A stretch of 64,000 nt of DNA from Escherichia coli (GTDB taxonomy: Bacteria; Pseudomonadota; Gammaproteobacteria; Enterobacterales; Enterobacteriaceae): the NCBI RefSeq assembly GCF_002854065.1, contig NZ_CP024147.1, one strand, 5' to 3'. Each line of letters starts with the position of its first letter. Within the stretch, counting starts at the first letter, position 1. A program made the translations under genes and the position numbers. Under the pieces are notes generated by a model. That model was not told where the DNA came from, ran no database searches, and saw only the letters and a list, made by a program, of their open reading frames with translations. Of the stretch, positions 2,366 to 61,521 are shown piece by piece.

Positions 2366-2394
2366 AGCCCTCAACGTGAGGGCTCGTCAGACGA

Positions 2395-3805: not shown

Positions 3806-3865
3806 AACCGCCACGTCGATGTATGATACGCGGGCTTTTGACCAGGTCTGACAGAGAGGTGCAGG

Positions 3866-4768: not shown

Positions 4769-4855
4769 TCGCAATCACATTACTGATCATGGTTTTGCCT
4801 GCGCTTTTTGCGTAAGCTGTGCCGGTCTTTTTATCGAAAGAGGTTGTACAAAATT

Positions 4856-5332
4856 ATGACATCGCTGGTCGTTCCTGGTCTGGATACGCTGCGTCAATGG
4901 CTCGATGACCTGGGGATGAGTTTTTTTGAATGTGATAACTGTCAGGCTCTGCATCTGCCCCATATGCAGAATTTCGACGGTGTCTTTGATGCCAAAATCG
5001 ATTTGATCGATAACACGATCCTGTTTTCTGCCATGGCGGAAGTCCGACCTTCAGCCGTATTGCCGCTGGCGGCGGATTTATCTGCCATCAATGCCAGTTC
5101 GCTGACCGTGAAAGCATTTCTTGATATGCAGGATGATAATCTGCCAAAACTGGTGGTTTGCCAGTCTTTATCCGTTATGCAGGGCGTAACCTATGAGCAG
5201 TTTGCATGGTTCGTGCGTCAGAGCGAAGAGCAGATTTCGATGGTCATTCTTGAAGCTAATGCCCATCAACTGCTGTTACCGACTGACGATGAAGGGCAAA
5301 ACAACGTTACCGAAAACTATTTCCTCCACTGA
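4856..5332 (+). CDS. ybjN: YbjN family protein (158 aa)
   Basis: ORF track 4808..5332; start moved to the ATG at 4856 (MTSLVVPG...). Confidence 0.8.
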   Translation: MTSLVVPGLDTLRQWLDDLGMSFFECDNCQALHLPHMQNFDGVFDAKIDLIDNTILFSAMAEVRPSAVLPLAADLSAINASSLTVKAFLDMQDDNLPKLVVCQSLSVMQGVTYEQFAWFVRQSEEQISMVILEANAHQLLLPTDDEGQNNVTENYFLH

Positions 5333-5682
5333 TAACTCCTTTCGAGCACGCAGTCGCTGCCGCAGTGACTGCGCGCTGCAATATTATCTGCTGTTTTTAA
5401 CCTTTTCTTAAAGATTATTTCACTTCTCTTGTGTCGATTTGGCTTTATCACATAGAGCAAATACGCATAAAAATTTGTTAAATACCGTTTTTTAATCCGA
5501 GCTATAGTCTCAAACCCTGGCTAAAGTTATTCTTGCGATGCTTTTATATAGCGAGCAGTGCTGGCCGGGAGAGAGTTCTCTTTTCTTACACCGCGCCGAT
5601 AAAAAATATGCACGTTTATTGCATATCTTTCAGTGTGACAACTTTTGTTCGTTTGTTAACGAACTTTCAGAAGGAAAGAGAT

Positions 5683-6795: not shown

Positions 6796-6889
6796 TCCGC
6801 AGCCTTAGATGCCGGGCGGGCGCACCACACCCGCCGGCAATTCGCACCATCATGGTGCGCTTGCACACATTCAATGCCGGAGAGCAGCC

Positions 6890-8023
6890 GTGAATGACGC
6901 TATCCCTCGCCCGCAGGCGAAAAACCGTAAGGCGCTGACGCCGCTATTAGAAATCCGCAACCTCACCAAATCCTACGATGGTCAACATGCGGTGGATGAT
7001 GTCAGCCTGACCATCTACAAAGGTGAAATCTTCGCGCTGCTGGGCGCATCCGGCTGTGGCAAGTCCACGCTGCTGCGTATGCTGGCAGGTTTCGAACAAC
7101 CTTCTGCCGGACAGATAATGCTTGATGGCGTCGATTTGTCACAGGTTCCGCCTTACCTGCGCCCCATCAATATGATGTTTCAGTCTTACGCGCTGTTTCC
7201 GCATATGACCGTGGAACAGAACATCGCTTTTGGCCTGAAACAGGACAAACTACCGAAAGCGGAAATTGCCAGCCGGGTCAATGAGATGCTCGGCCTTGTG
7301 CATATGCAGGAGTTCGCCAAACGCAAACCGCATCAGCTTTCCGGTGGTCAGCGACAGCGTGTGGCCCTGGCCCGAAGCCTTGCCAAACGCCCGAAACTAT
7401 TACTGCTCGATGAGCCGATGGGCGCGCTGGATAAAAAGCTGCGTGACCGGATGCAGCTTGAAGTGGTGGATATTCTGGAGCGCGTCGGTGTGACCTGCGT
7501 GATGGTTACTCACGATCAGGAAGAGGCGATGACCATGGCGGGGCGTATCGCCATTATGAATCGTGGGAAATTTGTCCAGATTGGCGAACCGGAAGAGATC
7601 TACGAGCATCCGACTACCCGCTATAGCGCCGAATTTATTGGCTCGGTTAATGTCTTTGAAGGTGTACTCAAAGAGCGTCAGGAAGATGGTCTGGTGCTTT
7701 ATTCGCCGGGGCTGATGCATCCACTGAAAGTCGATGCGGATGCTTCAGTGGTCGATAACGTGCCGGTACACGTAGCGCTGCGCCCGGAAAAAATCATGCT
7801 TTGCGAAGAGCCGCCCGCCAATGGTTGTAACTTCGCGGTGGGGGAGGTGATACACATTGCCTATCTCGGCGATCTTTCGGTGTATCACGTTCGTCTGAAA
7901 AGTGGGCAGATGATTAGCGCCCAGCTACAAAACGCCCATCGTCATCGTAAAGGGTTACCGACCTGGGGCGACGAAGTGCGTTTGTGCTGGGAAGTGGACA
8001 GCTGTGTGGTGCTGACGGTTTAA
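6890..8023 (+). CDS. potG: Putrescine ABC transporter ATPase PotG (377 aa), GTG start
   Basis: Walker A GASGCGKST, ABC signature LSGGQRQR, Walker B LLLLDEP; start placed at in-frame GTG giving NDAIPRPQ. Confidence 0.9.
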   Translation: MNDAIPRPQAKNRKALTPLLEIRNLTKSYDGQHAVDDVSLTIYKGEIFALLGASGCGKSTLLRMLAGFEQPSAGQIMLDGVDLSQVPPYLRPINMMFQSYALFPHMTVEQNIAFGLKQDKLPKAEIASRVNEMLGLVHMQEFAKRKPHQLSGGQRQRVALARSLAKRPKLLLLDEPMGALDKKLRDRMQLEVVDILERVGVTCVMVTHDQEEAMTMAGRIAIMNRGKFVQIGEPEEIYEHPTTRYSAEFIGSVNVFEGVLKERQEDGLVLYSPGLMHPLKVDADASVVDNVPVHVALRPEKIMLCEEPPANGCNFAVGEVIHIAYLGDLSVYHVRLKSGQMISAQLQNAHRHRKGLPTWGDEVRLCWEVDSCVVLTV

Positions 8024-8032
8024 GGAGCAAAG

Positions 8033-8986
8033 ATGAGTACACTTGAACCTGCTGCCCAGTCGAAACCGCCGGGCGGATTTAAGCTGTGGTTGTCGCAGCT
8101 GCAAATGAAGCATGGGCGCAAACTGGTCATTGCGTTGCCGTATATCTGGTTGATCTTGCTGTTTCTGCTGCCATTTCTGATTGTCTTTAAAATAAGCCTG
8201 GCGGAGATGGCGCGCGCTATTCCACCTTATACCGAACTGATGGAGTGGGCTGACGGGCAACTGTCCATCACCCTTAATTTCGGTAATTTCCTGCAACTGA
8301 CCGACGATCCGCTCTATTTCGATGCTTATCTCCAGTCGTTACAGGTGGCGGCGATTTCGACATTTTGCTGTTTACTGATCGGCTATCCGCTGGCGTGGGC
8401 GGTGGCGCACAGTAAGCCTTCGACCCGTAATATCTTATTACTACTGGTGATCCTGCCGTCGTGGACCTCGTTTCTGATTCGTGTCTACGCCTGGATGGGA
8501 ATATTAAAAAACAACGGTGTGCTGAATAATTTTCTGCAGTGGCTGGGGGTTATCGATCAACCGCTGACCATTCTGCATACCAATCTGGCAGTTTATATTG
8601 GCATTGTTTACGCCTACGTGCCGTTTATGGTGCTGCCGATTTATACCGCGTTGATTCGTATTGATTATTCGCTGGTGGAAGCAGCGCTGGATCTCGGTGC
8701 ACGACCGCTGAAAACGTTCTTTACTGTGATCGTGCCGCTGACTAAAGGTGGGATTATTGCCGGATCGATGCTGGTGTTTATCCCGGCTGTGGGCGAGTTT
8801 GTGATCCCGGAACTGCTCGGTGGCCCGGACAGCATCATGATCGGGCGCGTGCTATGGCAAGAGTTTTTCAATAACCGCGACTGGCCGGTGGCCTCGGCGG
8901 TAGCGATCATCATGTTGCTGCTGCTAATTGTGCCGATAATGTGGTTCCACAAACACCAGCAAAAAAGCGTGGGAGAACACGGATGA
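8033..8986 (+). CDS. potH: Putrescine ABC transporter permease PotH (317 aa)
   Basis: Multi-pass membrane ORF following potG. Confidence 0.9.
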   Translation: MSTLEPAAQSKPPGGFKLWLSQLQMKHGRKLVIALPYIWLILLFLLPFLIVFKISLAEMARAIPPYTELMEWADGQLSITLNFGNFLQLTDDPLYFDAYLQSLQVAAISTFCCLLIGYPLAWAVAHSKPSTRNILLLLVILPSWTSFLIRVYAWMGILKNNGVLNNFLQWLGVIDQPLTILHTNLAVYIGIVYAYVPFMVLPIYTALIRIDYSLVEAALDLGARPLKTFFTVIVPLTKGGIIAGSMLVFIPAVGEFVIPELLGGPDSIMIGRVLWQEFFNNRDWPVASAVAIIMLLLLIVPIMWFHKHQQKSVGEHG

Positions 8987-9828
8987 ATAATTTACCGGTA
9001 GTTCGTTCGCCCTGGCGGATTGTGATTTTGCTGCTGGGCTTTACCTTTCTCTACGCGCCAATGCTGATGCTGGTTATCTATTCGTTTAACAGCTCGAAGC
9101 TGGTGACGGTGTGGGCCGGCTGGTCAACGCGCTGGTATGGCGAATTATTGCGCGATGACGCGATGATGAGTGCGGTTGGTTTAAGTCTGACAATTGCGGC
9201 CTGTGCGGCGACGGCGGCGGCGATCCTCGGAACTATTGCGGCGGTGGTGCTGGTGCGCTTTGGCAGGTTTCGCGGATCAAATGGCTTTGCCTTTATGATC
9301 ACCGCGCCGCTGGTAATGCCAGATGTCATCACGGGCTTGTCGCTGTTGTTATTATTCGTCGCGCTTGCTCATGCCATTGGCTGGCCTGCGGACCGCGGTA
9401 TGCTTACCATCTGGCTGGCGCATGTCACTTTCTGTACGGCTTATGTGGCAGTCGTTATTTCGTCGCGTCTGCGGGAACTGGATCGCTCGATAGAAGAAGC
9501 AGCGATGGATCTCGGTGCGACGCCGCTGAAAGTGTTTTTCGTCATTACGCTACCGATGATCATGCCCGCGATCATTTCTGGCTGGTTACTGGCTTTTACT
9601 TTGTCGCTTGATGATCTGGTGATCGCCAGCTTTGTTTCCGGGCCGGGAGCCACCACGTTACCGATGCTGGTCTTTTCCAGCGTGCGGATGGGGGTGAATC
9701 CGGAAATCAACGCCCTGGCAACATTGATCCTTGGTGCGGTCGGAATTGTCGGATTTATCGCCTGGTATCTGATGGCTCGCGCAGAAAAACAGCGGATACG
9801 CGACATCCAGCGTGCAAGACGTGGCTGA
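8983..9828 (+). CDS. potI: Putrescine ABC transporter permease PotI (281 aa)
   Basis: ATG at 8983 overlapping the potH stop; MNNLPVVRSPW N-terminus. Confidence 0.9.
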   Translation: MNNLPVVRSPWRIVILLLGFTFLYAPMLMLVIYSFNSSKLVTVWAGWSTRWYGELLRDDAMMSAVGLSLTIAACAATAAAILGTIAAVVLVRFGRFRGSNGFAFMITAPLVMPDVITGLSLLLLFVALAHAIGWPADRGMLTIWLAHVTFCTAYVAVVISSRLRELDRSIEEAAMDLGATPLKVFFVITLPMIMPAIISGWLLAFTLSLDDLVIASFVSGPGATTLPMLVFSSVRMGVNPEINALATLILGAVGIVGFIAWYLMARAEKQRIRDIQRARRG

Positions 9829-9887
9829 AGACACTAAAATTTGCCAACCTGGCTACATAATGCCGCGTATGTCGCGGCATTGTTTTC

Positions 9888-10376
9888 ATGGAAGACGAAA
9901 CGTTGGGATTTTTTAAGAAAACATCTTCATCTCATGCTCGCCTGAATGTGCCTGCGCTGGTGCAGGTGGCGGCGCTCGCCATTATTATGATCCGTGGCCT
10001 CGACGTGCTGATGATTTTCAATACGCTGGGCGTGCGCGGTATTGGCGAGTTCATTCATCGCAGCGTACAAACCTGGAGTTTAACGCTGGTCTTTTTAAGC
10101 AGTCTGGTGCTGGTTTTCATTGAGATCTGGTGTGCGTTTTCACTGGTGAAAGGGCGTCGCTGGGCGCGCTGGCTATATCTGCTGACACAAATCACCGCCG
10201 CAAGTTACTTGTGGGCGGCTTCGCTGGGGTACGGTTATCCGGAGCTGTTCAGCATTCCCGGTGAATCAAAACGTGAAATCTTCCATAGCCTGATGCTGCA
10301 GAAGCTGCCGGATATGCTCATCCTGATGCTGCTGTTCGTTCCCTCGACCAGTCGGCGGTTCTTCCAGTTGCAATAA
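9888..10376 (+). CDS. ybjO: Inner membrane protein YbjO (162 aa)
   Basis: Hydrophobic ORF between potI and rlmC; synteny. Confidence 0.75.
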   Translation: MEDETLGFFKKTSSSHARLNVPALVQVAALAIIMIRGLDVLMIFNTLGVRGIGEFIHRSVQTWSLTLVFLSSLVLVFIEIWCAFSLVKGRRWARWLYLLTQITAASYLWAASLGYGYPELFSIPGESKREIFHSLMLQKLPDMLILMLLFVPSTSRRFFQLQ

Positions 10377-10416
10377 TGTGTATAATCGTCGCCCCTGATG
10401 ATGTGAAGGTCAATGT

Positions 10417-11544
10417 ATGCAGTGCGCACTTTACGACGCGGGTCGCTGTCGTTCCTGTCAGTGGATAACGCAGCCGATTCCAGAGCAACTCTCCGCTAAA
10501 ACCGCCGATCTTAAAAATCTGCTCGCCGATTTTCCGGTTGAGGAATGGTGCGCGCCGGTGTCAGGCCCAGAACAAGGGTTTCGTAATAAAGCCAAAATGG
10601 TGGTGAGTGGTAGCGTTGAAAAACCCCTGCTCGGTATGCTGCATCGCGACGGCACACCGGAAGACCTTTGTGACTGCCCGCTTTATCCTGCCTCATTTGC
10701 GCCCGTTTTTGCGGCGCTAAAACCGTTTATCGCCCGAGCGGGGTTAACGCCCTACAACGTGGCGCGTAAGCGTGGCGAACTGAAATACATTCTGCTGACC
10801 GAAAGCCAGAGCGATGGCGGCATGATGCTGCGCTTTGTACTGCGTTCTGATACCAAGCTGGCGCAACTGCGTAAGGCGCTGCCGTGGTTACACGAACAAC
10901 TACCGCAGCTGAAAGTTATTACCGTCAATATTCAGCCGGTACATATGGCGATTATGGAAGGGGAGACGGAGATCTACCTGACCGAACAACAGGCGCTGGC
11001 AGAGCGTTTTAACGATGTGCCGCTGTGGATCCGTCCGCAAAGTTTCTTCCAGACTAATCCGGCGGTCGCCAGCCAGCTGTACGCTACCGCGCGCGACTGG
11101 GTACGACAGCTGCCGGTTAAACATATGTGGGATCTGTTCTGCGGTGTGGGGGGCTTTGGTTTACACTGCGCGACGCCTGACATGCAGTTAACCGGGATCG
11201 AAATTGCGCCAGAGGCCATTGCCTGTGCAAAGCAGTCAGCTGCTGAACTGGGCTTAACGCGTTTGCAATTTCAGGCGCTGGACTCCACTCAGTTTGCCAC
11301 CGCTCAGGGGGAGGTGCCGGAGCTGGTGCTGGTTAACCCGCCGCGCCGCGGCATTGGTAAACCGCTGTGTGATTATCTCTCAACGATGGCACCGCGTTTT
11401 ATCATCTACTCCAGCTGTAACGCCCAAACTATGGCGAAAGATATCCGAGAACTGCCTGGTTATCGCATTGAACGGGTGCAGCTTTTCGATATGTTCCCTC
11501 ACACCGCGCATTATGAAGTGTTGACGCTGCTGGTAAAAATGTAA
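10417..11544 (+). CDS. rlmC: 23S rRNA m5U747 methyltransferase RlmC (375 aa)
   Basis: N-terminal Cys cluster (CRSCQW...C), SAM-methyltransferase motifs, 375 aa. Confidence 0.9.
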
Positions 11545-11841: not shown

Positions 11842-13944
11842 ATGTTTGCCAAATTCATAGATGTTATTCAAACGTTTTTAACTGAACCGGCAATTTTAAT
11901 TGGTTTGCTGGTGGGTATTGGTTATGCCCTTGATAAGAAATCGCCAATAAAAATTATTACCGGCATGGTCAGCGCCATGGTGGGATTAATGATGGTGTTA
12001 TTTGGTGGTTTCCAGTTTTCCGCAACATTTAAACCGGTAGCAGAAGCCGGGTGATGCTGCCAACTTACTGATTTAGTGTATGATGGTGTTTTTGAGGTGC
12101 TCCAGTGGCTTCTGTTTCTATCAGCTGTCCCTCCTGTTCAGCTACTGACGGGGTGGTGCGTAACGGCAAAAGCACTGCCGGACATCAGCGCTATCTCTGC
12201 TCTCACTGCCGTAAAACATGGCAACTGCAGTTCACTTACACCGCTTCTCAACCCGGTACGCACCAGAAAATCATTGATATGGCCATGAATGGCGTTGGAT
12301 GCCGGGCAACCGCCCGCATTATGGGCGTTGGCCTCAACACGATTTTCCGCCATTTAAAAAACTCAGGCCGCAGTCGGTAACCTCGCGCATACAGCCGGGC
12401 AGTGACGTCATCGTCTGCGCGGAAATGGACGAACAGTGGGGATACGTCGGGGCTAAATCGCGCCAGCGCTGGCTGTTTTACGCGTATGACAGGCTCCGGA
12501 AGACGGTTGTTGCGCACGTATTCGGTGAACGCACTATGGCGACGCTGGGGCGTCTTATGAGCCTGCTGTCACCCTTTGACGTGGTGATATGGATGACGGA
12601 TGGCTGGCCGCTGTATGAATCCCGCCTGAAGGGAAAGCTGCACGTAATCAGCAAGCGATATACGCAGCGAATTGAGCGGCATAACCTGAATCTGAGGCAG
12701 CACCTGGCACGGCTGGGACGGAAGTCGCTGTCGTTCTCAAAATCGGTGGAGCTGCATGACAAAGTCATCGGGCATTATCTGAACATAAAACACTATCAAT
12801 AAGTTGGAGTCATTACCCAGAAGCCGTAAGTAAAGCCTATGGTGTTCACGGATATTTAATGGATTCCTACGCAATGAAAGCGGCAACGCAAATTGCATTG
12901 GGGGATAATTTTGGTTATGTCGGGTATGTATTTGTACTGGCGTTTTTTACCAACCTGCTGCTGGTATTATTTGGTCGGTATACTGGTGCCAAAGGGATAT
13001 TTTTGACAGGGAATACCGGTGTTTCACATTCTCAGGCGGTATTATGGTTGATTGTCTTTTGGCTGGGTTTTAGCTGGACTACATCCATTATTATTGCCGG
13101 AATATTAACGGGTGTATTCTGGGCGTTCTTCACCACGCTCATTGTTAAGCCCATTGCCAAAGTTACCAAAGATGCCGGTTTTACCATTGCTCATAACCAG
13201 ATGTTGGGATTGTGGTTTTTCTCCAAATTCGCCCATAAATTTGGTGACCCTGAAAAGCACGATGCTGAAAACCTGAAACTTCCCGGGTGGCTGGCGATTT
13301 TTAACCATAACGTAACGGCTATCGCCATTGTGATGACGCTGTTTGTCGGTGGTTTCTTGCTATCAACGGGTATCGATAATGTCCAGTTAATGGCGAAAGG
13401 CAAGCCCTGGTACATCTATATCATCAACCTTGGCTTACAGTTCTCCATGTATATGGTCATTCTGCTGCAGGGTGTGCGCATGATGGTGGGCGAAATTAAC
13501 GGTTCGTTTAAAGGCTGGCAAGATCGCTTTATTCCTAACGCTATTCCTGCTGTCGATGTTGCAGCGCTGTTACCTTTTTCACCCAATGCCACAACGTTAG
13601 GCTTCGTCTTCTGTACTTTTGGCACCATTTTTTCGATGGGGATCTTATTACTGGTTCACAGCCCAATTATGGTATTGCCTGGCTTTGTACCTCTGTTTTT
13701 CTCTGGCGGTCCAATTGGCGTATTAGCAAACCGCATGGGCGGATACCGTTCCGTAATTATCTGTACGTTCTTGCTGGGTATTATTCAGACCTTTGGTACG
13801 GTGTGGGCTATTCCGTTAACCGGGCTTGCTGAAAATGGCGTCGGCTGGACAGGAATATTTGACTGGGCAACCGTATGGCCTGCTATTTGTGAAGTTCTGA
13901 AATTTATCGCTGCAACATTCCATCTTGGTCCTTACGCGGGTTAA
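11842..13944 (+). pseudogene. PTS ascorbate-family (UlaA/SgaT-like) EIIC, split by an IS1 insertion
   Basis: ORFs 11824..12054 and 12859..13944 both resemble UlaA; removing IS1 plus one TSD copy (777 bp) restores one in-frame ORF of about 441 aa; start codon 11842 vs 11824 uncertain. Confidence 0.8.
12050..12817 (+). mobile_element. insAB: IS1 copy 1 (768 bp) with 9-bp target-site duplication CAGAAGCCG
   Basis: Terminal inverted repeats ggtgatgctgccaacttactgat / ...aagttggagtcattacc; insA 12105..12380 and insB 12299..12802; identical 9 bp at 12041..12049 and 12818..12826. Confidence 0.95.
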
Positions 13945-14297: not shown

Positions 14298-16556
14298 ATG
14301 AGAGCGATTATTCTGCTGTTCGATAGTCTGAATAAACGGGTAATGACTCCAACTTATTGATAGTGTTTTATGTTCAGATAATGCCCGATGACTTTGTCAT
14401 GCAGCTCCACCGATTTTGAGAACGACAGCGACTTCCGTCCCAGCCGTGCCAGGTGCTGCCTCAGATTCAGGTTATGCCGCTCAATTCGCTGCGTATATCG
14501 CTTGCTGATTACGTGCAGCTTTCCCTTCAGGCGGGATTCATACAGCGGCCAGCCATCCGTCATCCATATCACCACGTCAAAGGGTGACAGCAGGCTCATA
14601 AGACGCCCCAGCGTCGCCATAGTGCGTTCACCGAATACGTGCGCAACAACCGTCTTCCGGAGCCTGTCATACGCGTAAAACAGCCAGCGCTGGCGCGATT
14701 TAGCCCCGACGTATCCCCACTGTTCGTCCATTTCCGCGCAGACGATGACGTCACTGCCCGGCTGTATGCGCGAGGTTACCGACTGCGGCCTGAGTTTTTT
14801 AAATGGCGGAAAATCGTGTTGAGGCCAACGCCCATAATGCGGGCGGTTGCCCGGCATCCAACGCCATTCATGGCCATATCAATGATTTTCTGGTGCGTAC
14901 CGGGTTGAGAAGCGGTGTAAGTGAACTGCAGTTGCCATGTTTTACGGCAGTGAGAGCAGAGATAGCGCTGATGTCCGGCAGTGCTTTTGCCGTTACGCAC
15001 CACCCCGTCAGTAGCTGAACAGGAGGGACAGCTGATAGAAACAGAAGCCACTGGAGCACCTCAAAAACACCATCATACACTAAATCAGTAAGTTGGCAGC
15101 ATCACCGAATAAACGTTATCTGCCACCTTATGGCGATGCGTTAACCAAAGCGCCTAATTTCCAACGTCTGGCGGCTCATGCCGCCACCTTTGAAAACAGT
15201 TACGTCGGCAGTATGCCGTGTATGCCTGCCCGGCGGGAGTTGCATACCGGGCGATGTAACTTCCTGCATCGGGAGTGGGGGCCGTTAGAACCGTTTGACG
15301 ATTCCATGCCGGAGCTGCTTAAAAAGGCGGGGATCTATACCCACCTGATAAGCGATCATTTGCATTACTGGGAAGATGGCGGCGGGAATTATCATAATCG
15401 CTACAGTTCGTGGGAGATTGTGCGCGGACAGAAAGGCGATCACTGGCATGCAAGCGTTGCGCAACCGCCTATTCCCGAGGTGCTACGGGTGCCGCAAAAG
15501 CAGACCGGTGGCGGTGTTTCTGGTCTGTGGCGCCATGACTGGGCAAACCGGGAATATATTCAGCAGGAAGCGGATTTTCCACAAACTAAAGTGTTTGATG
15601 CAGGCTGTGCCTTTATCCACAAAAATCACGCGGAAGATAACTGGTTATTGCAGGTCGAAACGTTTGATCCGCACGAGCCGTTTCACACAACGGAAGAGTA
15701 TCTTTCCTTGTATGAAGATAACTGGGATGGACCGCATTATGACTGGCCGCGTGGCCGGGTGCAGGAAAGCGACGAGGCCGTGGAGCACATCCGTTGCCGG
15801 TATCGTTCGCTGGTGTCGATGTGCGATCGCAACCTGGGGCGCATTCTCGACCTGATGGATGAGCACGATCTGTGGCGAGATACCATGCTGATTGTCGGCA
15901 CTGACCACGGCTTTTTACTCGGTGAGCATGGCTGGTGGGCGAAAAACCAGATGCCTTATTACAACGAAGTTGCCAATAATCCGTTGTTTATCTGGGACCC
16001 GCGCAGTGGTGTAAAAGGAGAGCGGCGACAGGCACTGGTACAAATGATCGACTGGGCGCCAACGTTGTATGACTTTTTTCAACAGCCAGTGCCGCCCGAT
16101 GTGCAGGGGCAACCGCTGGCGAAAACGGTCAGTCACGATGAACCAGTACGCAGCTCGGCGATGTTTGGTGTCTTCAGTGGTCATGTTAACGTAACTGATG
16201 GGCGTTTTGTCTATATGCGTGCAGCGCTGCCGGGGCGTGAGGATGATATTGCCAACTACACGTTGATGTCCTGCAAAATGAACAGCCGCTATCCGGTGGA
16301 TGAGATGCGGGCTTTATCGCTGGCCCCACCGTTTCGTTTTACCAAAGGGTTACAGGTATTACGCATCCCGGCACAGGAAAAATATAAGGGGTTGAATCAG
16401 TTTGGTCATTTGCTGTTTGAGCTGCAAAACGATCCGCAGCAGCTACATCCGATTCATGATGATGTGATCGAGTCCCGGATGATCGCGTTGCTGATTCAGT
16501 TGATGAAAGATAATGATGCGCCGCCAGAGCAGTTTCAGCGCCTGGGATTAGCGTAG
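14298..16556 (+). pseudogene. Cys-type (formylglycine-dependent) sulfatase, split near its 5' end by an IS1 insertion
   Basis: ATG at 14298 encodes MRAIILLFDSLNKR, then IS1, then the ORF resumes in frame (YLPPYGDA...); sulfatase signature C-M-P-A-R-x4-T-G present; no signal peptide. Confidence 0.8.
14339..15106 (-). mobile_element. insAB: IS1 copy 2 (768 bp, reverse orientation) with 9-bp target-site duplication GAATAAACG
   Basis: insB 14354..14857 and insA 14776..15051 on the minus strand; identical 9 bp at 14330..14338 and 15107..15115. Confidence 0.95.
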
Positions 16557-17511: not shown

Positions 17512-17655
<144 letters not shown>

Positions 17656-21268: not shown

Positions 21269-21891
21269 AATCATTTCCTTATTAGCTTGCTGTCTGCGTC
21301 ACACTACGACCAAACGCTATCAGATTATTTAATACATTGTTTTTAATACAATTCTGAAACAATCTGAACACCTGATTGGGTTTGAGTCCATTGCTGGCTA
21401 CCCACTCAAGGTTGCTCGTAGCTGACTTACTTAAATTACCCAAACAATAGACAGTGTAAACCATTTGTGAGGTTGAGCGTGTTATATGGCTGAAATGATC
21501 ATTTAAGGTAAATATGATAGTTCTGAAATGGTGGTATAAATCCTCCTGTAGAGGTTAAGAGCATCTGCAAGAAGCCAGTTTCACATTTATAACGCGTGAT
21601 AAATGAACGCGGTTATTGTCTAATCATTACAAATTTTTCACATGCGATAAGAGATCCTGCTATTAAGATGATTGCCAAAATTACGTTGTATTTTTGAAAA
21701 TGAGCGAAATTTGATAGTCCCAGCTTTGACTTTTGATAATATTATTTATGTTACAGTTGTGGGTATAAAATATAATCTTTTTGAACAAGTGAATTTGAGC
21801 GAAGAATAAATCAAGTTGTTTCAGTGTTTCGTTAATTAATATGAGTATAAAAGGTGTTGTGCTTTTACAATAATAAAGCGCGAGGAGTTCG

Positions 21892-22661
21892 GTGGATTAT
21901 CGTTTTTCTTGGGTGATTTTTAATATGATAAACAATATATCTGATCAAGCGTCATCATTTCCATGCACACAATTGAATCAAAGTGATAATTTCCTCGATT
22001 CACTGAGGGAATTTTTCGCGATATTAAATTCCAGTCGTAAGGGTGAGTTGTCTACATGGGATACCATCTACTTGCATCTGATATTAGCAATAAATGCTGA
22101 CAGTGATCTCATAAAAAATGATGTGTTGCTCGCGGAAAATATTCCAACAGCGGATTATCAATTTAATACATTTTTAGTAATGCTTTCGAGACTGATGTTA
22201 AAAAATATCTGGGTAAATCAGAAGATAACGAAGTTGAAATAAAAACGGGTAATGAAAGAATCTCTATTGGAATACGTAACATATCGAATGGAAAACTTGA
22301 AAGACAAAAGTTTCTTTTCCCACTGGACTATGAGAATAAATTACAACATCAATTAGACAAGCATTTTACGATTGAATCGCACCCATTATTATACAGGCAT
22401 ACTATGGGTAGTAAGATTGCGAATGTGATTTTTGAAAAATTATACAGTCGTATTGACTTTAACAAAGAACAATATATATCCTTTATAAAGGACGCGTTTC
22501 TTCATTTTTATGATTATAGCAGGCGATATGCAATTAATGAGAATATTGCAAAAGACGCTGTAACAAACAATATCGCATTGATGAGCACTTTTTATGACAG
22601 TGATAATACGTCAGGTGAGGTTTTAAATAATGATTTTACAGAAGAGTCATTTGAAACTGCG
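21892..22661 (+). pseudogene. 5' fragment of an AT-rich gene of unknown function: frameshifted, then truncated by IS1
   Basis: ORF 21892..22242 (frame 1) overlaps an open frame-0 segment 22167..22661 that runs into the IS1 end; possible GTG start with a gaggag Shine-Dalgarno. Confidence 0.4.
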
Positions 22662-23429
22662 GGTGATGCTGCCAACTTACTGATTTAGTGTATGATGGTG
22701 TTTTTGAGGTGCTCCAGTGGCTTCTGTTTCTATCAGCTGTCCCTCCTGTTCAGCTACTGACGGGGTGGTGCGTAACGGCAAAAGCACTGCCGGACATCAG
22801 CGCTATCTCTGCTCTCACTGCCGTAAAACATGGCAACTGCAGTTCACTTACACCGCTTCTCAACCCGGTACGCACCAGAAAATCATTGATATGGCCATGA
22901 ATGGCGTTGGATGCCGGGCAACCGCCCGCATTATGGGCGTTGGCCTCAACACGATTTTCCGCCATTTAAAAAACTCAGGCCGCAGTCGGTAACCTCGCGC
23001 ATACAGCCGGGCAGTGACGTCATCGTCTGCGCGGAAATGGACGAACAGTGGGGATACGTCGGGGCTAAATCGCGCCAGCGCTGGCTGTTTTACGCGTATG
23101 ACAGGCTCCGGAAGACGGTTGTTGCGCACGTATTCGGTGAACGCACTATGGCGACGCTGGGGCGTCTTATGAGCCTGCTGTCACCCTTTGACGTGGTGAT
23201 ATGGATGACGGATGGCTGGCCGCTGTATGAATCCCGCCTGAAGGGAAAGCTGTACGTAATCAGCAAGCGATATACGCAGCGAATTGAGCGGCATAACCTG
23301 AATCTGAGGCAGCACCTGGCACGGCTGGGACGGAAGTCGCTGTCGTTCTCAAAATCGGTGGAGCTGCATGACAAAGTCATCGGGCATTATCTGAACATAA
23401 AACACTATCAATAAGTTGGAGTCATTACC
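22662..23429 (+). mobile_element. insAB: IS1 copy 3 (768 bp) without a target-site duplication
   Basis: Flanks are gaaactgcg (left) and agtaatctc (right); insA 22717..22992, insB 22911..23414; insB has an H-to-Y change relative to copies 1 and 2. Confidence 0.95.
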
Positions 23430-24092
23430 AGTAATCTCTATTTATCACACACTGTTGTGAATGAAAGTATATTGAAGAAATGTTGTTTTGAAAACGGCAG
23501 TTTAGGTGATGTTAAAATAACAAATAGCAATATAATAAATAATGTATTCAAAAATATTTCGTTTAGATCTGTTAAAATTAACAACGTAAATACTCATTCT
23601 TTAAAATTTATTAACTGCAATTTTTTCAATGTTGATATGATAAGAGTTAATTTCAGTAAATGTCTTTTTCATGACTGTAGTATGCATGGTGTCAAGATAA
23701 AACCATAGTTGCCAGTAAAATGGACAAAAGAGTTAATAAATGATTATTTGTATGGCTGTTTACTCTCTCTGTACTCTATCTGTGCAAGAGATATATATAA
23801 TATGATCGCCGGGAATAACGTGAAGGTTGCTGCGGATGCTTTCCTTGAAATACTTTATTCTCTTAAAAATAAATATTGTATTAAACTATTAAGCGCTCAG
23901 GATCGGGCGTTTATATACGAATTTGCAAGAATGATCTTCGCTTATATTAATGACAAAAGCATTGAGATCTTATTACTTTCTTGTTTTGCGGCGGCTGACC
24001 AAAAAGCAATCCAGCGGTATATACCTCAGGCGCAAGATGGGGAAGACTTTAGGAATCATTTACAATATAAGTTGACTCTTCCCACTCATTAA
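23430..24092 (+). pseudogene. 3' fragment of the same or an adjacent AT-rich gene: pentapeptide-repeat-like region with an in-frame amber stop at 23706..23708
   Basis: Frame 0 is open from the IS1 boundary; ORFs 23457..23708 and 23709..24092 are in the same frame separated only by TAG; repeat-like stretch NVFKNISFRSVKINNVNTHSLKFINCNFFNVDMIRVNF. Confidence 0.4.
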
Positions 24093-35024: not shown

Positions 35025-36497
35025 TTAATTACGTTTTTCCAGCAGGGTCCGGTAAATCAGACCACCGATAATGCCGCCGACAATTGGCACCACCCAGAAG
35101 AACCACAGTTGTTCTAATGCCCAGCCGCCCTGGAAGATGGCAACCGCGGTGCTGCGCGCCGGGTTAACAGAAGTGTTAGTCACCGGAATACTGATTAAGT
35201 GAATCAGGGTTAAGGCCAGACCAATAGCGATCGGCGCAAAACCTGCCGGAGCGAATTTGTCGGTTGCGCCGTGGATCACCAACAGGAAACCTGCACTCAA
35301 TACCAGTTCAACTACCAGCGCGGAAAGCATGGAATAACCGCCTGGTGAATGCTCGCCATAACCGTTAGGGTGATGCTGCCAACTTACTGATTTAGTGTAT
35401 GATGGTGTTTTTGAGGTGCTCCAGTGGCTTCTGTTTCTATCAGCTGTCCCTCCTGTTCAGCTACTGACGGGGTGGTGCGTAACGGCAAAAGCACTGCCGG
35501 ACATCAGCGCTATCTCTGCTCTCACTGCCGTAAAACATGGCAACTGCAGTTCACTTACACCGCTTCTCAACCCGGTACGCACCAGAAAATCATTGATATG
35601 GCCATGAATGGCGTTGGATGCCGGGCAACCGCCCGCATTATGGGCGTTGGCCTCAACACGATTTTCCGCCATTTAAAAAACTCAGGCCGCAGTCGGTAAC
35701 CTCGCGCATACAGCCGGGCAGTGACGTCATCGTCTGCGCGGAAATGGACGAACAGTGGGGATACGTCGGGGCTAAATCGAGCCAGCGCTGGCTGTTTTAC
35801 GCGTATGACAGGCTCCGGAAGACGGTTGTTGCGCACGTATTCGGTGAACGCACTATGGCGACGCTGGGGCGTCTTATGAGCCTGCTGTCACCCTTTGACG
35901 TGGTGATATGGATGACGGATGGCTGGCCGCTGTATGAATCCCGCCTGAAGGGAAAGCTGCACGTAATCAGCAAGCGATATACGCAGCGAATTGAGCGGCA
36001 TAACCTGAATCTGAGGCAGCACCTGGCACGGCTGGGACGGAAGTCGCTGTCGTTCTCAAAATCGGTGGAGCTGCATGACAAAGTCATCGGGCATTATCTG
36101 AACATAAAACACTATCAATAAGTTGGAGTCATTACCAACCGTTAGAAGCAAAACCGCTGGCTGCCGCGTCAAAACCCGTTTTACCACTGGCAATTAAATA
36201 CAGCAGCGCCGCTGCAACAATACCGCCGACAACCTGGGCAATTACGTAGCCAACGACTTCTTTTGCCGGAAAACGTCCGCCAGCCCATAAACCAATAGTG
36301 ACCGCCGGGTTAAAATGACCACCAGAAATATGACCAACAGCGAAGGCCATCGTCAGAACGGTCAAACCGAATGCCAGCGCCACGCCGGCAAAACCAATGC
36401 CTAATTCCGGGAAGCCTGCGGCCAGTACAGCACTACCACAGCCACCAAAAACAAGCCAGAAAGTACCAAAACATTCAGCTGCTAATTTTCTGAACAT
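35025..36497 (-). pseudogene. aqpZ: Aquaporin Z, interrupted by an IS1 insertion
   Basis: N-terminal part 36137..36497 ([13 protein letters not shown]... with NPA) and C-terminal part 35025..35368 (...second NPA...RTLLEKRN) on the minus strand, separated by IS1. Confidence 0.9.
35369..36136 (+). mobile_element. insAB: IS1 copy 4 (768 bp) with 9-bp target-site duplication AACCGTTAG
   Basis: Identical 9 bp at 35360..35368 and 36137..36145; insA 35424..35699, insB 35618..36121 with an R-to-S change. Confidence 0.95.
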
Positions 36498-36922
36498 ATC
36501 CACCTCAATTAAAAATTGACCCTGTGAAAAATATGGTCGTTTTATAGGGTCGTCGTAAAAAAGTGACGACGGAAATAATGCGCGGCTATTTTAAAAACGA
36601 AGGCGAGTCATTCACCAGATAAATAAATCCAGTAAATTTGATTTAGGGCAACAGCGGGTTGCCCCATATAGTCATTTGTCTGATTGACAGTGTAGTGCAA
36701 GCAAAAGATTTAATCCTTTAGGCGTAATAAAAAATAATTTATCATGCTAATTATTTGATTTTGTTGTTTTTGCAGACTTATCAGCAAGAGGGAGTATAAC
36801 GCGATTATTCGCTCATTTTTCAGACATTTGCCATGCTTAAATGTGATGTCATCACGTATTAGCAAGGCCTTTCCCGTTATACTGCCAGCGTAAAGGATAA
36901 GTCACATATTTCTGGAGGGGAT

Positions 36923-38581
36923 ATGATTCTTGAGCGCGTTGAAATTGTGGGTTTTCGCGGTATCAACCGTTTGTCGTTGATGCTGGAACAAAACAACGTC
37001 CTGATTGGGGAGAACGCGTGGGGTAAATCCAGCTTGCTGGACGCCTTAACCCTGCTGCTATCGCCAGAATCAGATCTCTACCATTTTGAGCGCGACGATT
37101 TCTGGTTCCCGCCGGGAGATATCAACGGGCGAGAACATCATCTGCATATTATTTTGACCTTCCGCGAATCGCTGCCAGGCCGACATCGGGTACGCCGTTA
37201 TCGGCCGCTGGAAGCGTGCTGGACGCCATGCACCGATGGCTATCACCGTATTTTTTATCGTCTGGAAGGGGAGAGTGCGGAAGACGGCAGCGTGATGACA
37301 CTGCGCAGTTTTCTCGATAAAGACGGACATCCGATTGATGTTGAGGATATTAACGATCAGGCACGCCATCTGGTGCGTTTAATGCCGGTGCTGCGCTTGC
37401 GTGATGCCCGTTTTATGCGCCGTATTCGTAACGGCACGGTGCCAAATGTCCCCAATGTGGAAGTCACCGCGCGCCAGCTCGATTTCCTCGCCCGTGAGTT
37501 GTCCTCACATCCGCAAAATCTCTCTGATGGACAGATTCGTCAGGGACTTTCCGCAATGGTACAGCTGCTTGAGCATTATTTCTCTGAGCAGGGGGCCGGA
37601 CAGGCGCGATATCGTTTAATGCGGCGGCGAGCCAGCAATGAGCAACGAAGCTGGCGCTATCTGGATATCATCAACCGGATGATTGACCGACCTGGAGGGC
37701 GCTCGTATCGGGTTATTTTGCTCGGCCTGTTTGCTACTTTATTGCAGGCAAAAGGCACATTGCGACTGGATAAAGACGCCCGTCCATTGTTGCTGATCGA
37801 AGATCCAGAAACCCGTTTACACCCCATTATGCTTTCAGTTGCCTGGCATCTGTTGAATCTTTTGCCTTTACAACGTATTGCTACCACCAACTCTGGCGAG
37901 CTGCTTTCGTTAACTCCAGTGGAACATGTTTGCCGCCTGGTGCGTGAATCTTCTCGTGTTGCCGCCTGGCGTCTGGGGCCAAGTGGCTTGAGCACCGAAG
38001 ACAGCCGCCGCATCTCTTTTCACATTCGTTTTAATCGTCCGTCATCGCTGTTTGCTCGCTGCTGGTTGCTGGTGGAAGGGGAAACGGAAACCTGGGTTAT
38101 CAATGAACTGGCGCGTCAGTGCGGACATCATTTTGATGCCGAAGGGATCAAGGTCATTGAGTTTGCCCAGTCCGGGCTAAAGCCACTGGTTAAATTTGCC
38201 CGGCGAATGGGGATTGAATGGCATGTACTGGTCGATGGCGATGAAGCAGGGAAGAAATATGCCGCTACGGTACGCAGCCTGTTGAATAATGATCGGGAAG
38301 CCGAACGAGAACATTTAACGGCGTTACCGGCGCTGGATATGGAACATTTTATGTATCGCCAGGGATTTTCCGATGTGTTCCACCGCGTGGCGCAAATCCC
38401 GGAAAATGTACCGATGAATCTGCGCAAAATTATCTCGAAAGCGATCCATCGCTCTTCCAAACCCGATCTTGCCATTGAAGTGGCAATGGAGGCCGGACGT
38501 CGTGGTGTGGACTCCGTACCGACGCTGCTGAAAAAAATGTTCTCACGCGTGCTGTGGCTGGCGCGCGGTCGCGCGGATTAA
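36923..38581 (+). CDS. ybjD: OLD-family protein YbjD: N-terminal ABC-type ATPase plus C-terminal Toprim domain (552 aa)
   Basis: Walker A GENAWGKSS, Walker B-like LLLIEDPETRLHP, Toprim motifs LVEGETE and VLVDGDEAG. Confidence 0.85.
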   Translation: MILERVEIVGFRGINRLSLMLEQNNVLIGENAWGKSSLLDALTLLLSPESDLYHFERDDFWFPPGDINGREHHLHIILTFRESLPGRHRVRRYRPLEACWTPCTDGYHRIFYRLEGESAEDGSVMTLRSFLDKDGHPIDVEDINDQARHLVRLMPVLRLRDARFMRRIRNGTVPNVPNVEVTARQLDFLARELSSHPQNLSDGQIRQGLSAMVQLLEHYFSEQGAGQARYRLMRRRASNEQRSWRYLDIINRMIDRPGGRSYRVILLGLFATLLQAKGTLRLDKDARPLLLIEDPETRLHPIMLSVAWHLLNLLPLQRIATTNSGELLSLTPVEHVCRLVRESSRVAAWRLGPSGLSTEDSRRISFHIRFNRPSSLFARCWLLVEGETETWVINELARQCGHHFDAEGIKVIEFAQSGLKPLVKFARRMGIEWHVLVDGDEAGKKYAATVRSLLNNDREAEREHLTALPALDMEHFMYRQGFSDVFHRVAQIPENVPMNLRKIISKAIHRSSKPDLAIEVAMEAGRRGVDSVPTLLKKMFSRVLWLARGRAD

Positions 38582-39570
38582 CCGCGAAACATCGTGGCCA
38601 TTTGTGGCTGAATAGCGTCGAGCATCTCATAGCGCCGACGGTATTCAGCCCGTTTTTTACTGGCGATTTCGGCAATCTCTTTTCGTGCTATCTGTGCTGG
38701 AAGGCGGTAATGGCGTTCAGCATCACATACGCCGCCAACCGATTCCCAGAAAGCGTTGTAATCGGCATGGATCTTGCCTTCTTTATCGCGATAACGCAGG
38801 CTGCGGTAAATATGCGTTTCATTGCTGACGGCAATAATCTGCTCTACCTGCAAACGTTGGGCAAACAGACAGGCCGCTTCCATCACGAGGCGTTTGGGAA
38901 ATAGCCCGTGGCAGGCTTTCGTCGCATTCTGGATTTCCTGATGTGGAATTTCCCATTTTGCGCCTTGCAGTCCACCAATAAACATCGTTCTTTTCCCCTG
39001 ATATTCACACAGGGTAAACGTGATTTCTGCCAGAGGAATACCTTCGCTGTTGCGGAACAGGATTGTGCTGTCACCTTCTTTATCCATTGAGATCATCATG
39101 GTCAGCTCAAGCGTGAACTGCTCGCCGTTTTTGCCTTCCAACTTCGCCAGTTGCAGCCCGGGGGTATTCAAATATAAGCTGAATTCTTCCGCCGACATAC
39201 ACCCGCGGAGTAACGCATAATGGTAACGTAACGCCTCCAGCAATTGCTTACGGCTAAGATTCGCCGCAAGGTAAGGGCGATGCAGACGTACAGGCAGTCG
39301 CGGCTGGCGCGTTAACAATACATTGAGATTAGGCCAGTGGGAAAGTTCGTTCATCCACTCAACGCTTAAACGCGGCATAATCAACGAGCGCAGCAAAAAT
39401 TTCTGGCGAAAACTACGGCGATGCCAGAATTTACCCGGCCGACACTGTCCACGTGCCAGACTAAGAAAAAGTGACAGGCTGCTGAGAGATTCAGATGGCG
39501 TAAAGGTCCGTTCAGTTAGCTGCGACATATTCATGAAATCAATGGTTATACATGACGTCGATTTCACCAT
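38578..39570 (-). CDS. ybjX: DUF535 / VirK-like protein YbjX
   Basis: ORF convergent with ybjD; recalled identity; exact start codon uncertain. Confidence 0.75.
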   Translation of the reverse strand: MVKSTSCITIDFMNMSQLTERTFTPSESLSSLSLFLSLARGQCRPGKFWHRRSFRQKFLLRSLIMPRLSVEWMNELSHWPNLNVLLTRQPRLPVRLHRPYLAANLSRKQLLEALRYHYALLRGCMSAEEFSLYLNTPGLQLAKLEGKNGEQFTLELTMMISMDKEGDSTILFRNSEGIPLAEITFTLCEYQGKRTMFIGGLQGAKWEIPHQEIQNATKACHGLFPKRLVMEAACLFAQRLQVEQIIAVSNETHIYRSLRYRDKEGKIHADYNAFWESVGGVCDAERHYRLPAQIARKEIAEIASKKRAEYRRRYEMLDAIQPQMATMFRG

Positions 39571-46202: not shown

Positions 46203-46290
46203 ATTCACTGCCGTACAGGCAGCTTAGAAAGTCAACCGAAAGAAAAACTCGATTTTTATACCGTTCACTGCTGTACAGGTAGATAAAATG
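46203..46290 (+). CRISPR. Orphan type I-F-like CRISPR remnant: two 28-bp repeats flanking one 32-bp spacer
   Basis: Repeat 1 attcactgccgtacaggcagcttagaaa (27/28 to the I-F consensus GTTCACTGCCGTACAGGCAGCTTAGAAA); spacer gtcaaccgaaagaaaaactcgatttttatacc; repeat 2 is degenerate (7 mismatches); no cas genes in the window. Confidence 0.7.
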
Positions 46291-46333: not shown

Positions 46334-46421
46334 TGGCGGTGAGGGGGGGATTCGAACCCCCGATACGTTGCCGTATACACACTTTCCAGGCGTGCTCCTT
46401 CAGCCACTCGGACACCTCACC
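46334..46421 (-). tRNA. serW: tRNA-Ser, anticodon GGA (88 nt including CCA)
   Basis: Minus-strand sequence GGTGAGGTGTCCGAGTGG...CCTGGAAAG...GGTTCGAATCCCCCCCTCACCGCCA with a long variable arm. Confidence 0.9.
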
Positions 46422-61283: not shown

Positions 61284-61307
61284 TACCCAATTTTTCTGAA
61301 TCTAAAA

Positions 61308-61329
61308 AGCGCCTGCGGGCGCTTTTTTT
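61308..61329 (+). terminator. serS intrinsic terminator
   Basis: Stem agcgcc / ggcgct with loop tgcg, followed by T7. Confidence 0.7.
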
Positions 61330-61521
61330 GTCTCCCTTTGATACCGAACAATAATTACTCCTCACTTACACGTAATACTACTTTCGAGTGAAAATCTACC
61401 TATCTCTTTGATTTTCAAATTATTCGATGTATACAAGCCTATATAGCGAACTGCTATAGAAATAATTACACAATACGGTTTGTTACTGGAATCAATCGTG
61501 AGCAAGCTTGAGTGAGCCATT

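Follow-up and report, generated by a model that had tools for sequence, protein, structure and literature searches.

What does a protein of a phage-conflict family do in a bacterium that almost always carries its gene? This question is raised by ybjD of Escherichia coli, which we analysed in a 64,000-nucleotide stretch of E. coli chromosome (contig NZ_CP024147.1 of assembly GCF_002854065.1; hereafter the window) that spans ybjL to dmsA and is core chromosome. The gene lies at 36923-38581 (+) as an ATG-initiated open reading frame of 552 amino acids plus stop, annotated as ybjD, "ATP-dependent endonuclease." It is universally present and very strongly constrained, yet its function is uncharacterised, and the bacterial family to which it belongs is otherwise tied to phage conflict. 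A preliminary description of the window proposed that YbjD is a solitary OLD-family protein serving as a single-gene defence nuclease. Our analyses uphold the family assignment and incline us, somewhat, to view YbjD as an ATP-gated Toprim nuclease kept for a conserved role in the cell.

YbjD is an OLD-family protein with a predicted two-metal Toprim site

YbjD consists of an N-terminal ATP-binding cassette (ABC)-type ATPase region with a helical insertion (36923-38047 (+), residues 1-375), followed by a Toprim core (38048-38242 (+), residues 376-440) and a C-terminal helical region. Pfam assigned residues 1-375 to DUF2813, the YbjD-type ABC ATPase family (E = 3.5e-160), and residues 376-440 to OLD-like_TOPRIM (E = 7.8e-16), with additional matches to AAA_15 and AAA_21. 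The best PADLOC models were GajA (PDLC00094, 7e-80), for which the best stretch covered residues 260-549 only, and Old (2e-24). NCBIfam assigned no family at its cut-off and gave merely P-loop-level matches to MAD3, RecF, and PtuA. A single-sequence AlphaFold model of YbjD had a predicted local distance difference test score (pLDDT) of 37.7 and was replaced by an alignment-based model with a pLDDT of 88.4 and a predicted template modelling score of 0.87. In Foldseek searches, this confident model matched GajA (1.3e-18, the top hit), Thermus scotoductus OLD (4.4e-16), and the OLD protein of retron Eco8 (1.5e-13), and it also resembled the heads of SMC, Rad50, and RecF in fold. A YbjD family profile searched against the PDB likewise found Thermus OLD (9.5e-22) and GajA (6e-20). 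Because the Foldseek and family-profile matches are to GajA and OLD structures, both the Toprim fold and the ABC ATPase head are supported. The four motifs from which the preliminary description had read this architecture (GENAWGKSS, DPETRLHP, LVEGETE, and VLVDGDEAG) were all located by position in YbjD, and its ATPase head with C-terminal Toprim domain held up in the Pfam and structural comparisons with Old and GajA. Judged from its ABC ATPase signature, its Toprim two-metal motifs, and the OLD-like fold of the model, YbjD is a genuine OLD-family protein.

An exhaustive homologue search returned 1979 representatives at E ≤ 1e-3 and 335 at E ≤ 1e-30; all residue counts given here come from a family alignment of 62 full-length YbjD homologues with 28-54% identity. 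Invariant in all 62 were E30, R362, H367, R379, W381, E385, G386, E387, E389, and W391, together with F414, G418, D440, G443, E474, G481, K513, and P514, and D438 and D472 were each kept in 61. Most of the predicted catalytic residues fall in three motifs. LVEGETE (38069-38089 (+), residues 383-389) contains E385, a predicted metal A ligand, and E389, a predicted metal B ligand; VLVDGDEAG (38225-38251 (+), residues 435-443) contains the predicted metal A ligands D438-x-D440; and LDMEH (38333-38347 (+)) contains the predicted metal B ligands D472-x-E474. In profile alignments, E385, D438, and D440 aligned with the metal A residues E377, D431, and D433 of Thermus OLD, and E389 aligned with its metal B ligand D381 (roles from PMC7049728). 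By motif pattern, D472-x-E474 would be the second metal B pair, comparable to S478/E480 of Thermus OLD and D541/E543 of P2 Old. K513, in the SSKPD motif of the C-terminal helical region (K513-P514; 38453-38467 (+)), may be the counterpart of K562, the catalytic lysine of the Class 2 Bp OLD protein. YbjD appears to possess a complete two-metal site, E385/D438/D440 and E389/D472/E474, plus the invariant K513, and is predicted to be a nuclease. In the literature searched, we found no biochemistry on YbjD for either nuclease activity or ATP hydrolysis.

The class of YbjD depends on the part considered. By genomic context, as a solitary gene, YbjD belongs to Class 1, the assignment made in the preliminary description and published in 2019 (PMC6755086); by sequence and structure, its C-terminal half is nearest a Class 2 GajA subfamily. 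A profile of the C-terminal 197 residues matched 6nk8 (4.9e-7) and 6njv (1e-6), both Class 2 OLD C-terminal regions, as well as 6p74 (1.4e-3) in the PDB, with an alignment that extended no further than the DxD motif and did not place K513. After the Toprim core, four helices are predicted, and 164 residues superpose, at 2.3 A, on the C-terminal region of the Class 2 Bp OLD protein. In the model, this superposition and the position of K513 in the helical part point towards a Class 2-like C terminus. Class 2 OLD proteins have been reported to be nested within Class 1 diversity (PMC12796447), which fits the mixture of a Class 1 context and an apparently Class 2-like C terminus in YbjD.

Some members of the YbjD family are much longer. 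P0141, P0149, P0162, and P0165 (loci L086, L092, L093, and L094) are 669-1867 amino acids in length with Walker A, EGETE, and DGD intact. Their large insertions follow approximately residue 63 and are visibly of low complexity (Q/N/S/T-rich) in P0149, and a second insertion follows approximately residue 495 in the three longest proteins (P0149, P0162, and P0165). A eukaryotic or fusion origin of these proteins was ruled out; they are bacterial and have a normal core with low-complexity insertions at two loops. We also note that Salmonella genomic island 1 carries a so-called "ybjD" that is in fact an OLD gene linked to a helicase and bears a borrowed name (PMC9035990).

The YbjD ATPase site retains nucleotide-binding residues and is predicted to hydrolyse ATP weakly

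The Walker A P-loop of YbjD (GENAWGKSS; 37007-37033 (+), residues 29-37) is highly conserved. Besides the invariant E30, G29 and G34 were each found in 61 of the 62 homologues, and position 35 was Lys in 55, Arg in 6, and Ser in 1. The residues for hydrolysis are another matter. The Walker B motif and next loop, LLLIEDPETRLHP (37787-37825 (+), residues 289-301), contains DPETRLHP and provides E293-D294, and the H-loop-equivalent QRIATTNS (37871-37894 (+)), identified by alignments to Thermus OLD and GajA proteins, provides N323. Thermus OLD, Bacillus cereus GajA, and a GajA protein from a metagenomic contig (L096, described below) instead have E-E and an H-loop His. N323 stands where Thermus OLD carries H310, and H310A and E276A each abolish ATP hydrolysis in that enzyme (PMC7049728). 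Across the family, position 294 was D in 35, E in 18, and N in 5 proteins, and position 323 was N in 36, Q in 10, H in 10, and Y in 5. The canonical set of E-E plus His was kept by 1 of the 62 family members, whereas a Walker A Lys or Arg was kept by 61.

The simplest reading of these site residues, together with a published result for a K35A mutant (see below), would be that ATP binding restrains YbjD and that hydrolysis is slow. Such restraint would follow a logic like that of nucleotide sensing by GajA, for which ATP is reported to be an inhibitor (summarised in PMC13261556).

ybjD is a core gene whose divergence follows that of its housekeeping neighbours

Of 5426 complete E. coli genomes, 5424 contained a match to a 3.3-kb query covering aqpZ'-ybjD-ybjX-macA', almost always as a single chromosomal copy, and the ybjD coding sequence alone gave the same count. 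All 40 E. coli hits that we sampled evenly, from 99.9% to 95.8% identity, were single-piece, exactly 1659 nucleotides in length, and annotated as intact ybjD. The patchy distribution that is a hallmark of defence genes was not observed for ybjD across this set of 5426 E. coli genomes.

A scan of one genome per species identified at least 494 relatives, the best 80 of which we examined; all were from Enterobacterales, in about 45 genera. The locus frame hcp-lysO-(aqpZ)-ybjD-(ybjX)-(macAB)-cspD was fixed across these 80 other species, with only lysO-ybjD-cspD in Pectobacterium and Brenneria and the E. coli order in Yersinia. YbjD identity to the E. coli protein was 97-99% within Escherichia, 90-91% in Citrobacter, approximately 90% in Salmonella, 83-87% in Enterobacter and Klebsiella, 64-68% in Serratia, Pectobacterium, and Hafnia, 56% in Proteus, approximately 45% in Aeromonas, 40-43% in Vibrio, and 38% in one betaproteobacterium. 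This identity tracked that of Hcp, MacA, MacB, and LysO (Pearson 0.89-0.94), and its mean level equalled that of MacA, MacB, and LysO. The G+C content of ybjD (0.529, versus 0.511 for the window) and its G+C content at third codon positions were the norm for the region. Neither fast or diversifying evolution (dN/dS, the ratio of nonsynonymous to synonymous divergence, 0.015) nor horizontal transfer was indicated for ybjD by these identity correlations and the genome-typical composition.

More distant YbjD-family genes were solitary among ordinary genes, such as ushA and yceI in Vibrio and genes for a major facilitator superfamily transporter, a META-domain protein, hslUV, cysS, and polA elsewhere. 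No GajB/UvrD-type helicase gene adjoined a YbjD-family gene at the approximately 90 loci examined. The solitary state that the preliminary description had noted in the window extends to the 80 Enterobacterales species, Yersinia, Vibrio, and eight distant members, none of which had a helicase, reverse transcriptase, or split Toprim partner. As read from these comparisons, ybjD appears to be a core, syntenic, vertically inherited Enterobacterales gene with orthologue-like relatives in Aeromonas, Vibrio, and some Betaproteobacteria.

The Toprim half of ybjD is its most constrained part

We calculated dN/dS by the Nei-Gojobori method against E. albertii (L003) and a divergent Escherichia genome (L002). 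The value for ybjD was 0.015, compared with 0.025 for macA, 0.026-0.031 for macB, 0.029 for lysO, 0.045 for hcp, and 0.043-0.061 for ybjX; cspD was the only neighbour gene that did not exceed ybjD. Within ybjD, dN/dS was 0.018-0.020 in the ATPase half and 0.006-0.010 in the Toprim/C-terminal half. These values mark very strong purifying selection on ybjD, most intense in the Toprim half.

The divergent genome used here (NZ_JAATUR010000002.1) is labelled Escherichia coli, and its synonymous divergence from the window was approximately 0.2-0.5 over six genes. Divergence of this size far exceeds expectation within E. coli, and the genome is probably a cryptic Escherichia lineage rather than E. 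coli proper.

ybjD is essentially absent from phages, plasmids, and viral contigs

In a tblastn search of 50,697 phage records, the sole YbjD match was a 2-kb unannotated, host-like record that covered the first 98 residues at 91% identity. Matches above 80% identity in a plasmid collection came either from "plasmid" records of megabase size or from E. coli records that hold the same pair, ybjD-ybjX; those at lower identity, which were not inspected individually, included Vibrio chromids and a 145-kb Serratia record. When 2.9 million viral contigs were scanned with the family alignment, two loci contained a YbjD relative (L095 and L096). Located at the edge of a predicted provirus, L095 is the aqpZ-ybjD-ybjX-macA locus of E. 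coli and shares 98-99% identity with the window; the remainder of the provirus holds insertion sequence transposases and a head-tail adaptor fragment, and the ybjD of L095 is host flank. We found no phage-borne ybjD in these direct scans of the phage and viral collections.

L096 is of a different kind. Positions 135-11066 of this metagenomic "viral" contig (IMGVR_UViG_3300021604_000070) form a compact defence island with, in order, an HmaC-like ATPase (PDLC00662, E 0), GajA, GajB, and a Type IIG restriction-modification enzyme (4.8e-96). The GajA protein matched PDLC00094 over its full length (3.9e-228), and the gene for the GajB helicase (8e-266) overlaps that for GajA by 4 nucleotides. The 64-kb window around ybjD contained IS1 copies and no defence gene, integrase, or prophage, and neither YbjX nor LysO matched any PADLOC model. 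Rather than in a defence island or mobile element, ybjD was found among hcp, lysO, aqpZ, ybjX, macAB, and cspD.

Published phenotypes of YbjD do not depend on its nuclease domain

The OLD identity of YbjD and its testing against phages are already in the literature and are not new. The OLD classes were defined by Schiltz et al. (2019) from a search with E. coli YbjD (b0876), in which E. coli was placed among those carrying a solitary Class 1 protein (PMC6755086), and Atahualpa et al. (2026) detected a ybjD transcript, assayed phage susceptibility, and proposed the name oldB (PMC13261556). The remark in the preliminary description that the chromosomal function is uncharacterised has in this respect been overtaken.

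In the plaque assays of Atahualpa et al., the ybjD Keio deletion mutant did not differ from its parent in susceptibility to 68 BASEL phages. Low-level expression of YbjD from pBAD lowered plaquing of Bas18 and Bas20 and made the plaques of Bas64-68 smaller; no toxicity was visible at this level, and higher expression was toxic. Mutation of three acidic Toprim residues or removal of residues 378-552 left the phage effect unchanged, removal of the ATPase part abolished it, and K35A YbjD retained it with higher toxicity. YbjD also did not kill a recBC(ts) host, unlike P2 Old (PMC13261556 for all these results). Because Toprim mutation or deletion changed nothing, the published phenotype is independent of the nuclease domain. 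The Toprim domain is the most constrained part of ybjD yet dispensable for this phenotype, which implies that the true job of YbjD has not yet been seen. From the proposal of a single-gene defence nuclease, what survives is a weak over-expression effect on a few phages; the null deletion, the dispensable Toprim domain, and the genomic hallmarks run contrary to it.

Two expression-related observations provide weak hints. ybjD was modestly induced in uropathogenic E. coli by a cathelicidin-derived peptide, alongside arnF, marR, and evgS (PMC6737244), and the region upstream of the Edwardsiella ybjD orthologue was a top chromatin immunoprecipitation peak of the nucleoid protein EnrR (PMC9023278).

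A proposed conserved cellular role and its alternatives

We infer for YbjD ATP gating, weak hydrolysis, nuclease activity, and a housekeeping role, which might work together as follows. ATP bound at K35 would keep YbjD restrained. With degenerate hydrolysis machinery (E293-D294 and N323), ATP would serve chiefly as a regulatory ligand, with the ATPase acting as a slow switch or sensor. On release, the Toprim site would nick or cut a nucleic acid substrate. The anti-phage effect of over-expression would stem solely from the ATPase/helical part, probably as a by-product of YbjD being in excess. The conserved job of YbjD appears to be nucleic acid processing in the cell rather than a typical mobile anti-phage function. 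A precedent is archaeal Cran1, an OLD protein with a part in the cell cycle (PMC12796447).

Several points weigh against this interpretation, among them that Asp can sometimes replace a catalytic Glu. Some other Class 1 OLD homologues likewise have Asn at the H-loop position (PMC7049728), and because of these two precedents the weak ATP hydrolysis of YbjD is a prediction. A cellular phenotype is not known for ybjD, which is non-essential, with a viable Keio deletion (PMC13261556), and carries a premature stop in one laboratory strain (PMC5699524). No conserved operon partner or regulatory signal directs the gene to a pathway. The characterised bacterial OLD proteins are all in phage defence or phage-phage conflict (PMC13261556), over-expressed YbjD does hit some phages, and core genes may still serve defence, so conservation alone leaves an immune role possible. 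Finally, the PHROGs family phrog_4747 (function unassigned), whose members were not inspected, matched YbjD strongly (2.9e-116, versus 4.3e-64 for true GajA). By analogy with L095, phrog_4747 may stem from host genes caught in predicted proviruses.

The most serious alternative, which we nonetheless regard as less likely, is that YbjD is a dedicated single-gene anti-phage or anti-plasmid Class 1 OLD protein, chromosomally fixed and silent until a trigger that is absent from the BASEL phages, upon which it would kill or arrest the cell or cut the invader. The company that YbjD keeps speaks for this: P2 Old, Vc OLD, GajA, retron Eco8 OLD, and PARIS are all players in phage conflicts, the GajA model is the PADLOC model that YbjD matches best, and the nearest relative of YbjD on a viral contig is a real Gabija GajA. 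Low over-expression curbs Bas18, Bas20, and Bas64-68 with toxicity at higher levels, like that of abortive-infection effectors (PMC13261556). Experiment otherwise lends the defence interpretation weak support, given the null deletion over 68 phages, an over-expression effect without need for the Toprim domain, and the unlikeness to P2 Old in the recBC(ts) host (PMC13261556), and every genomic hallmark examined here contradicts it. The gene is core, syntenic, vertical, and as slow as its transporter and enzyme neighbours, its Toprim half is under the tightest constraint, and it lies outside defence islands and is essentially missing from phages, plasmids, and viral contigs. Less probable again is that the nuclease targets tRNA or stable RNA as an ATP-regulated ribonuclease in RNA turnover or stress translation control, which would fit either a housekeeping or a defence role. 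A weak hint in this direction is that a YbjD-family gene adjoins a YicC-like gene in two related lineages. YicC-family proteins are enzymes that degrade RNA. In its geometry, the OLD active site mirrors that of RNase M5 (PMC6755086), P2 Old cleaves the anticodon arm of tRNAs (PMC12445682), and PARIS AriB is a Toprim tRNA nuclease (PMC12409363). Against an RNA target, Thermus OLD, Bp OLD, GajA, and Vc OLD cut or nick DNA in vitro (PMC6755086, PMC7049728), and the C-terminal region of YbjD is structurally nearest the DNA-cutting Class 2 enzymes; the YbjD sequence itself does not discriminate between the substrates.

Two other interpretations have very little to commend them. It is highly improbable that ybjD and the convergent ybjX form a two-gene functional unit, even with a 4-nucleotide tail overlap, adjacency in 58 of 81 loci (including Yersinia and Serratia), and their listing as a convergent excludon from RNA sequencing (PMC12288877). 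ybjX is missing in 23 of the 81 ybjD loci (Klebsiella, Raoultella, Pectobacterium, Brenneria, Mangrovibacter, and others) and was not found beside the Vibrio and more distant YbjD homologues, the two genes are on opposite strands, and YbjX, which has no PADLOC match, evolves far faster, with an identity correlation to YbjD of r 0.59. The phyletic pattern and evolutionary rate rule out ybjX as an obligate partner. Still more improbable is that ybjD is a decaying, non-functional relic of an old defence gene. A relic would account for the lack of a deletion phenotype (PMC13261556), the premature stop in a laboratory strain (PMC5699524), and the degenerate ATP-hydrolysis residues. It is refuted by the selection data: dN/dS is 0.015 and the catalytic Toprim residues are kept to a divergence of approximately 30% identity. 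Moreover, open reading frame length is constant in all sampled E. coli and a transcript is detected (PMC13261556).

YbjD differs from characterised OLD systems

The Class 1 proteins P2 Old and Vc OLD are accessory and are either carried by mobile elements or act against them, and 0.45% of genomes are reported to encode DefenseFinder-type Class 1 OLD proteins, whereas ybjD is core. The P2 Old phenotype needs both ATPase and nuclease residues (PMC7049728), whereas that of YbjD needs neither K35 nor Toprim, and P2 Old kills recBC(ts) cells whereas YbjD does not (PMC13261556). Thermus OLD (6P74) is without a C-terminal helical domain (PMC7049728), in contrast to YbjD, whose C terminus aligns almost fully with the Bp OLD C-terminal region, and has E-E and His where YbjD has E-D and Asn. 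PARIS AriA/AriB (Class 4) splits the ATPase and Toprim domains between two proteins that in YbjD are fused in a solitary one, and the OLD protein of retron Eco8 (Class 3) works with a reverse transcriptase and multicopy single-stranded DNA, with no such partner near ybjD.

Gabija GajA, of the PDLC00094 subfamily, is the nearest defence relative of YbjD by sequence. The L096 GajA is 31% identical to YbjD (1e-80) and shares near-identical blocks (LFARCWLLVEGETE, EFAQCG...GIEWH.L.DGD, and SKP), with much greater divergence in the N-terminal 280 residues. It has a GajB partner, a defence-island location, and E-E plus His, in contrast to the helicase-free, core ybjD with E-D plus Asn. Closest to YbjD in concept is Cran1, a Class 5 OLD protein of Sulfolobales that is taxonomically homogeneous and vertically inherited, has conserved catalytic residues, and is apparently not for defence (PMC12796447). 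The two differ in other respects: Cran1 is archaeal, essential, linked to a membrane-protein gene, and has a role in cell-cycle progression (PMC12796447), whereas ybjD is bacterial, non-essential, and solitary. Tentatively, and with less conviction than for a cellular role as such, we suggest that the YbjD/DUF2813 clade is a domesticated relative of Gabija GajA. It would have lost or never had the helicase, relaxed its hydrolysis residues with ATP binding kept, and become fixed long ago in the ancestor of Enterobacterales, Aeromonas, and Vibrio with a non-defence nuclease function (e.g., DNA repair, chromosome maintenance, or RNA processing), which would make it a counterpart of Cran1 and the phage effect a by-product.

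Upstream region of ybjD and the convergent ybjX

The 419-bp region 5' of ybjD is AT-rich (G+C content 0.38) and poorly conserved save for two elements. One is TATACT (36878-36883 (+)), a -10-like hexamer approximately 40 nucleotides 5' of the ATG, seen in an upstream alignment across enterobacterial species; the other is the Shine-Dalgarno sequence GGAGGGG (36914-36920 (+)), 3 nucleotides 5' of the start codon, whose GGAGG is conserved across genera. A consensus promoter and terminator scan around ybjD yielded nothing useful, with no -35 element matching TATACT, and an Rfam scan detected no known RNA element near the gene. SOS regulation of ybjD was considered and rejected: no LexA box is present upstream, and the 24 one-mismatch matches in the window are within chance.

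As noted in the preliminary description, ybjD is convergent with the VirK-like ybjX (38578-39534 (-)). The genes overlap tail to tail by 4 nucleotides, with their stop codons sharing TTAA (38578-38581), so there is no space for an intergenic terminator. Outside Escherichia, YbjX is 44-76% identical, compared with 64-91% for YbjD, and mean identities are 54% and 84%, respectively. dN to Citrobacter and Enterobacter reaches 0.34-0.50 for ybjX, compared with 0.06-0.10 for ybjD. Of the convergent pair, ybjX looks like the gene under changing selection, and it outpaces every neighbour.

Insertion sequences, small RNAs, and a relic CRISPR array in the window

Directly 5' of ybjD, aqpZ is split by a 768-bp IS1 (35369-36136). 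Its terminal inverted repeats are 23 nucleotides long, and the 9-bp target-site duplication on either side (AACCGTTAG; 35360-35368 and 36137-36145) is perfect. Strain CUWW06 is annotated with this same insertion, and aqpZ is intact in most E. coli. Further IS1 copies lie at 12050-12817 (+), 14339-15106 (-), and 22662-23429 (+). The first two of these are inverted and flank a 1.5-kb piece of a small accessory PTS (phosphotransferase system) IIC/IIB-sulfatase cluster that lies between rlmC and artJ; they break the genes for PTS IIC and the sulfatase in an arrangement that resembles a composite transposon. Both are absent from the otherwise near-identical CUWW06, with which the window is not colinear upstream of 24400. 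Between ybjP and ybjQ (21602-24074), approximately 1.7 kb is missing in CUWW06. This segment corresponds to a "pentapeptide repeat-containing protein" gene, so arranged in just a few E. coli genomes and here cut by the third of these further IS1 copies.

Rfam matched two small RNAs in the window, STnc130 (140 bits) at 61297-61431 (-), near dmsA, and naRNA4/CssrE (78.5 bits) at 17516-17596 (+), in the artJ-artM intergenic region. Apart from a relic CRISPR array (46203-46290), the window has no defence-related trace. The array lies 3' of clpA, 7.6 kb from ybjD, and adjoins a tRNA-Ser gene (46337-46421). It comprises one 28-nucleotide repeat matching Rfam CRISPR-DR4 (ATTCACTGCCGTACAGGCAGCTTAGAAA), a 32-nucleotide spacer, and a degenerate second repeat (GTTCACTGCTGTACAGGTAGATAAAATG), with no cas genes nearby. 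We take it to be the type I-F remnant that is known from the clpA-infA interval of E. coli.

Implications

The interest that remains in ybjD lies in the strongly selected and unexplained function of its Toprim domain. If the housekeeping role that we favour is true, OLD nucleases would have been recruited to core cell biology in bacteria as in archaea, and YbjD and its GajA cousin would form a clean pair for studying the taming of an immune effector.

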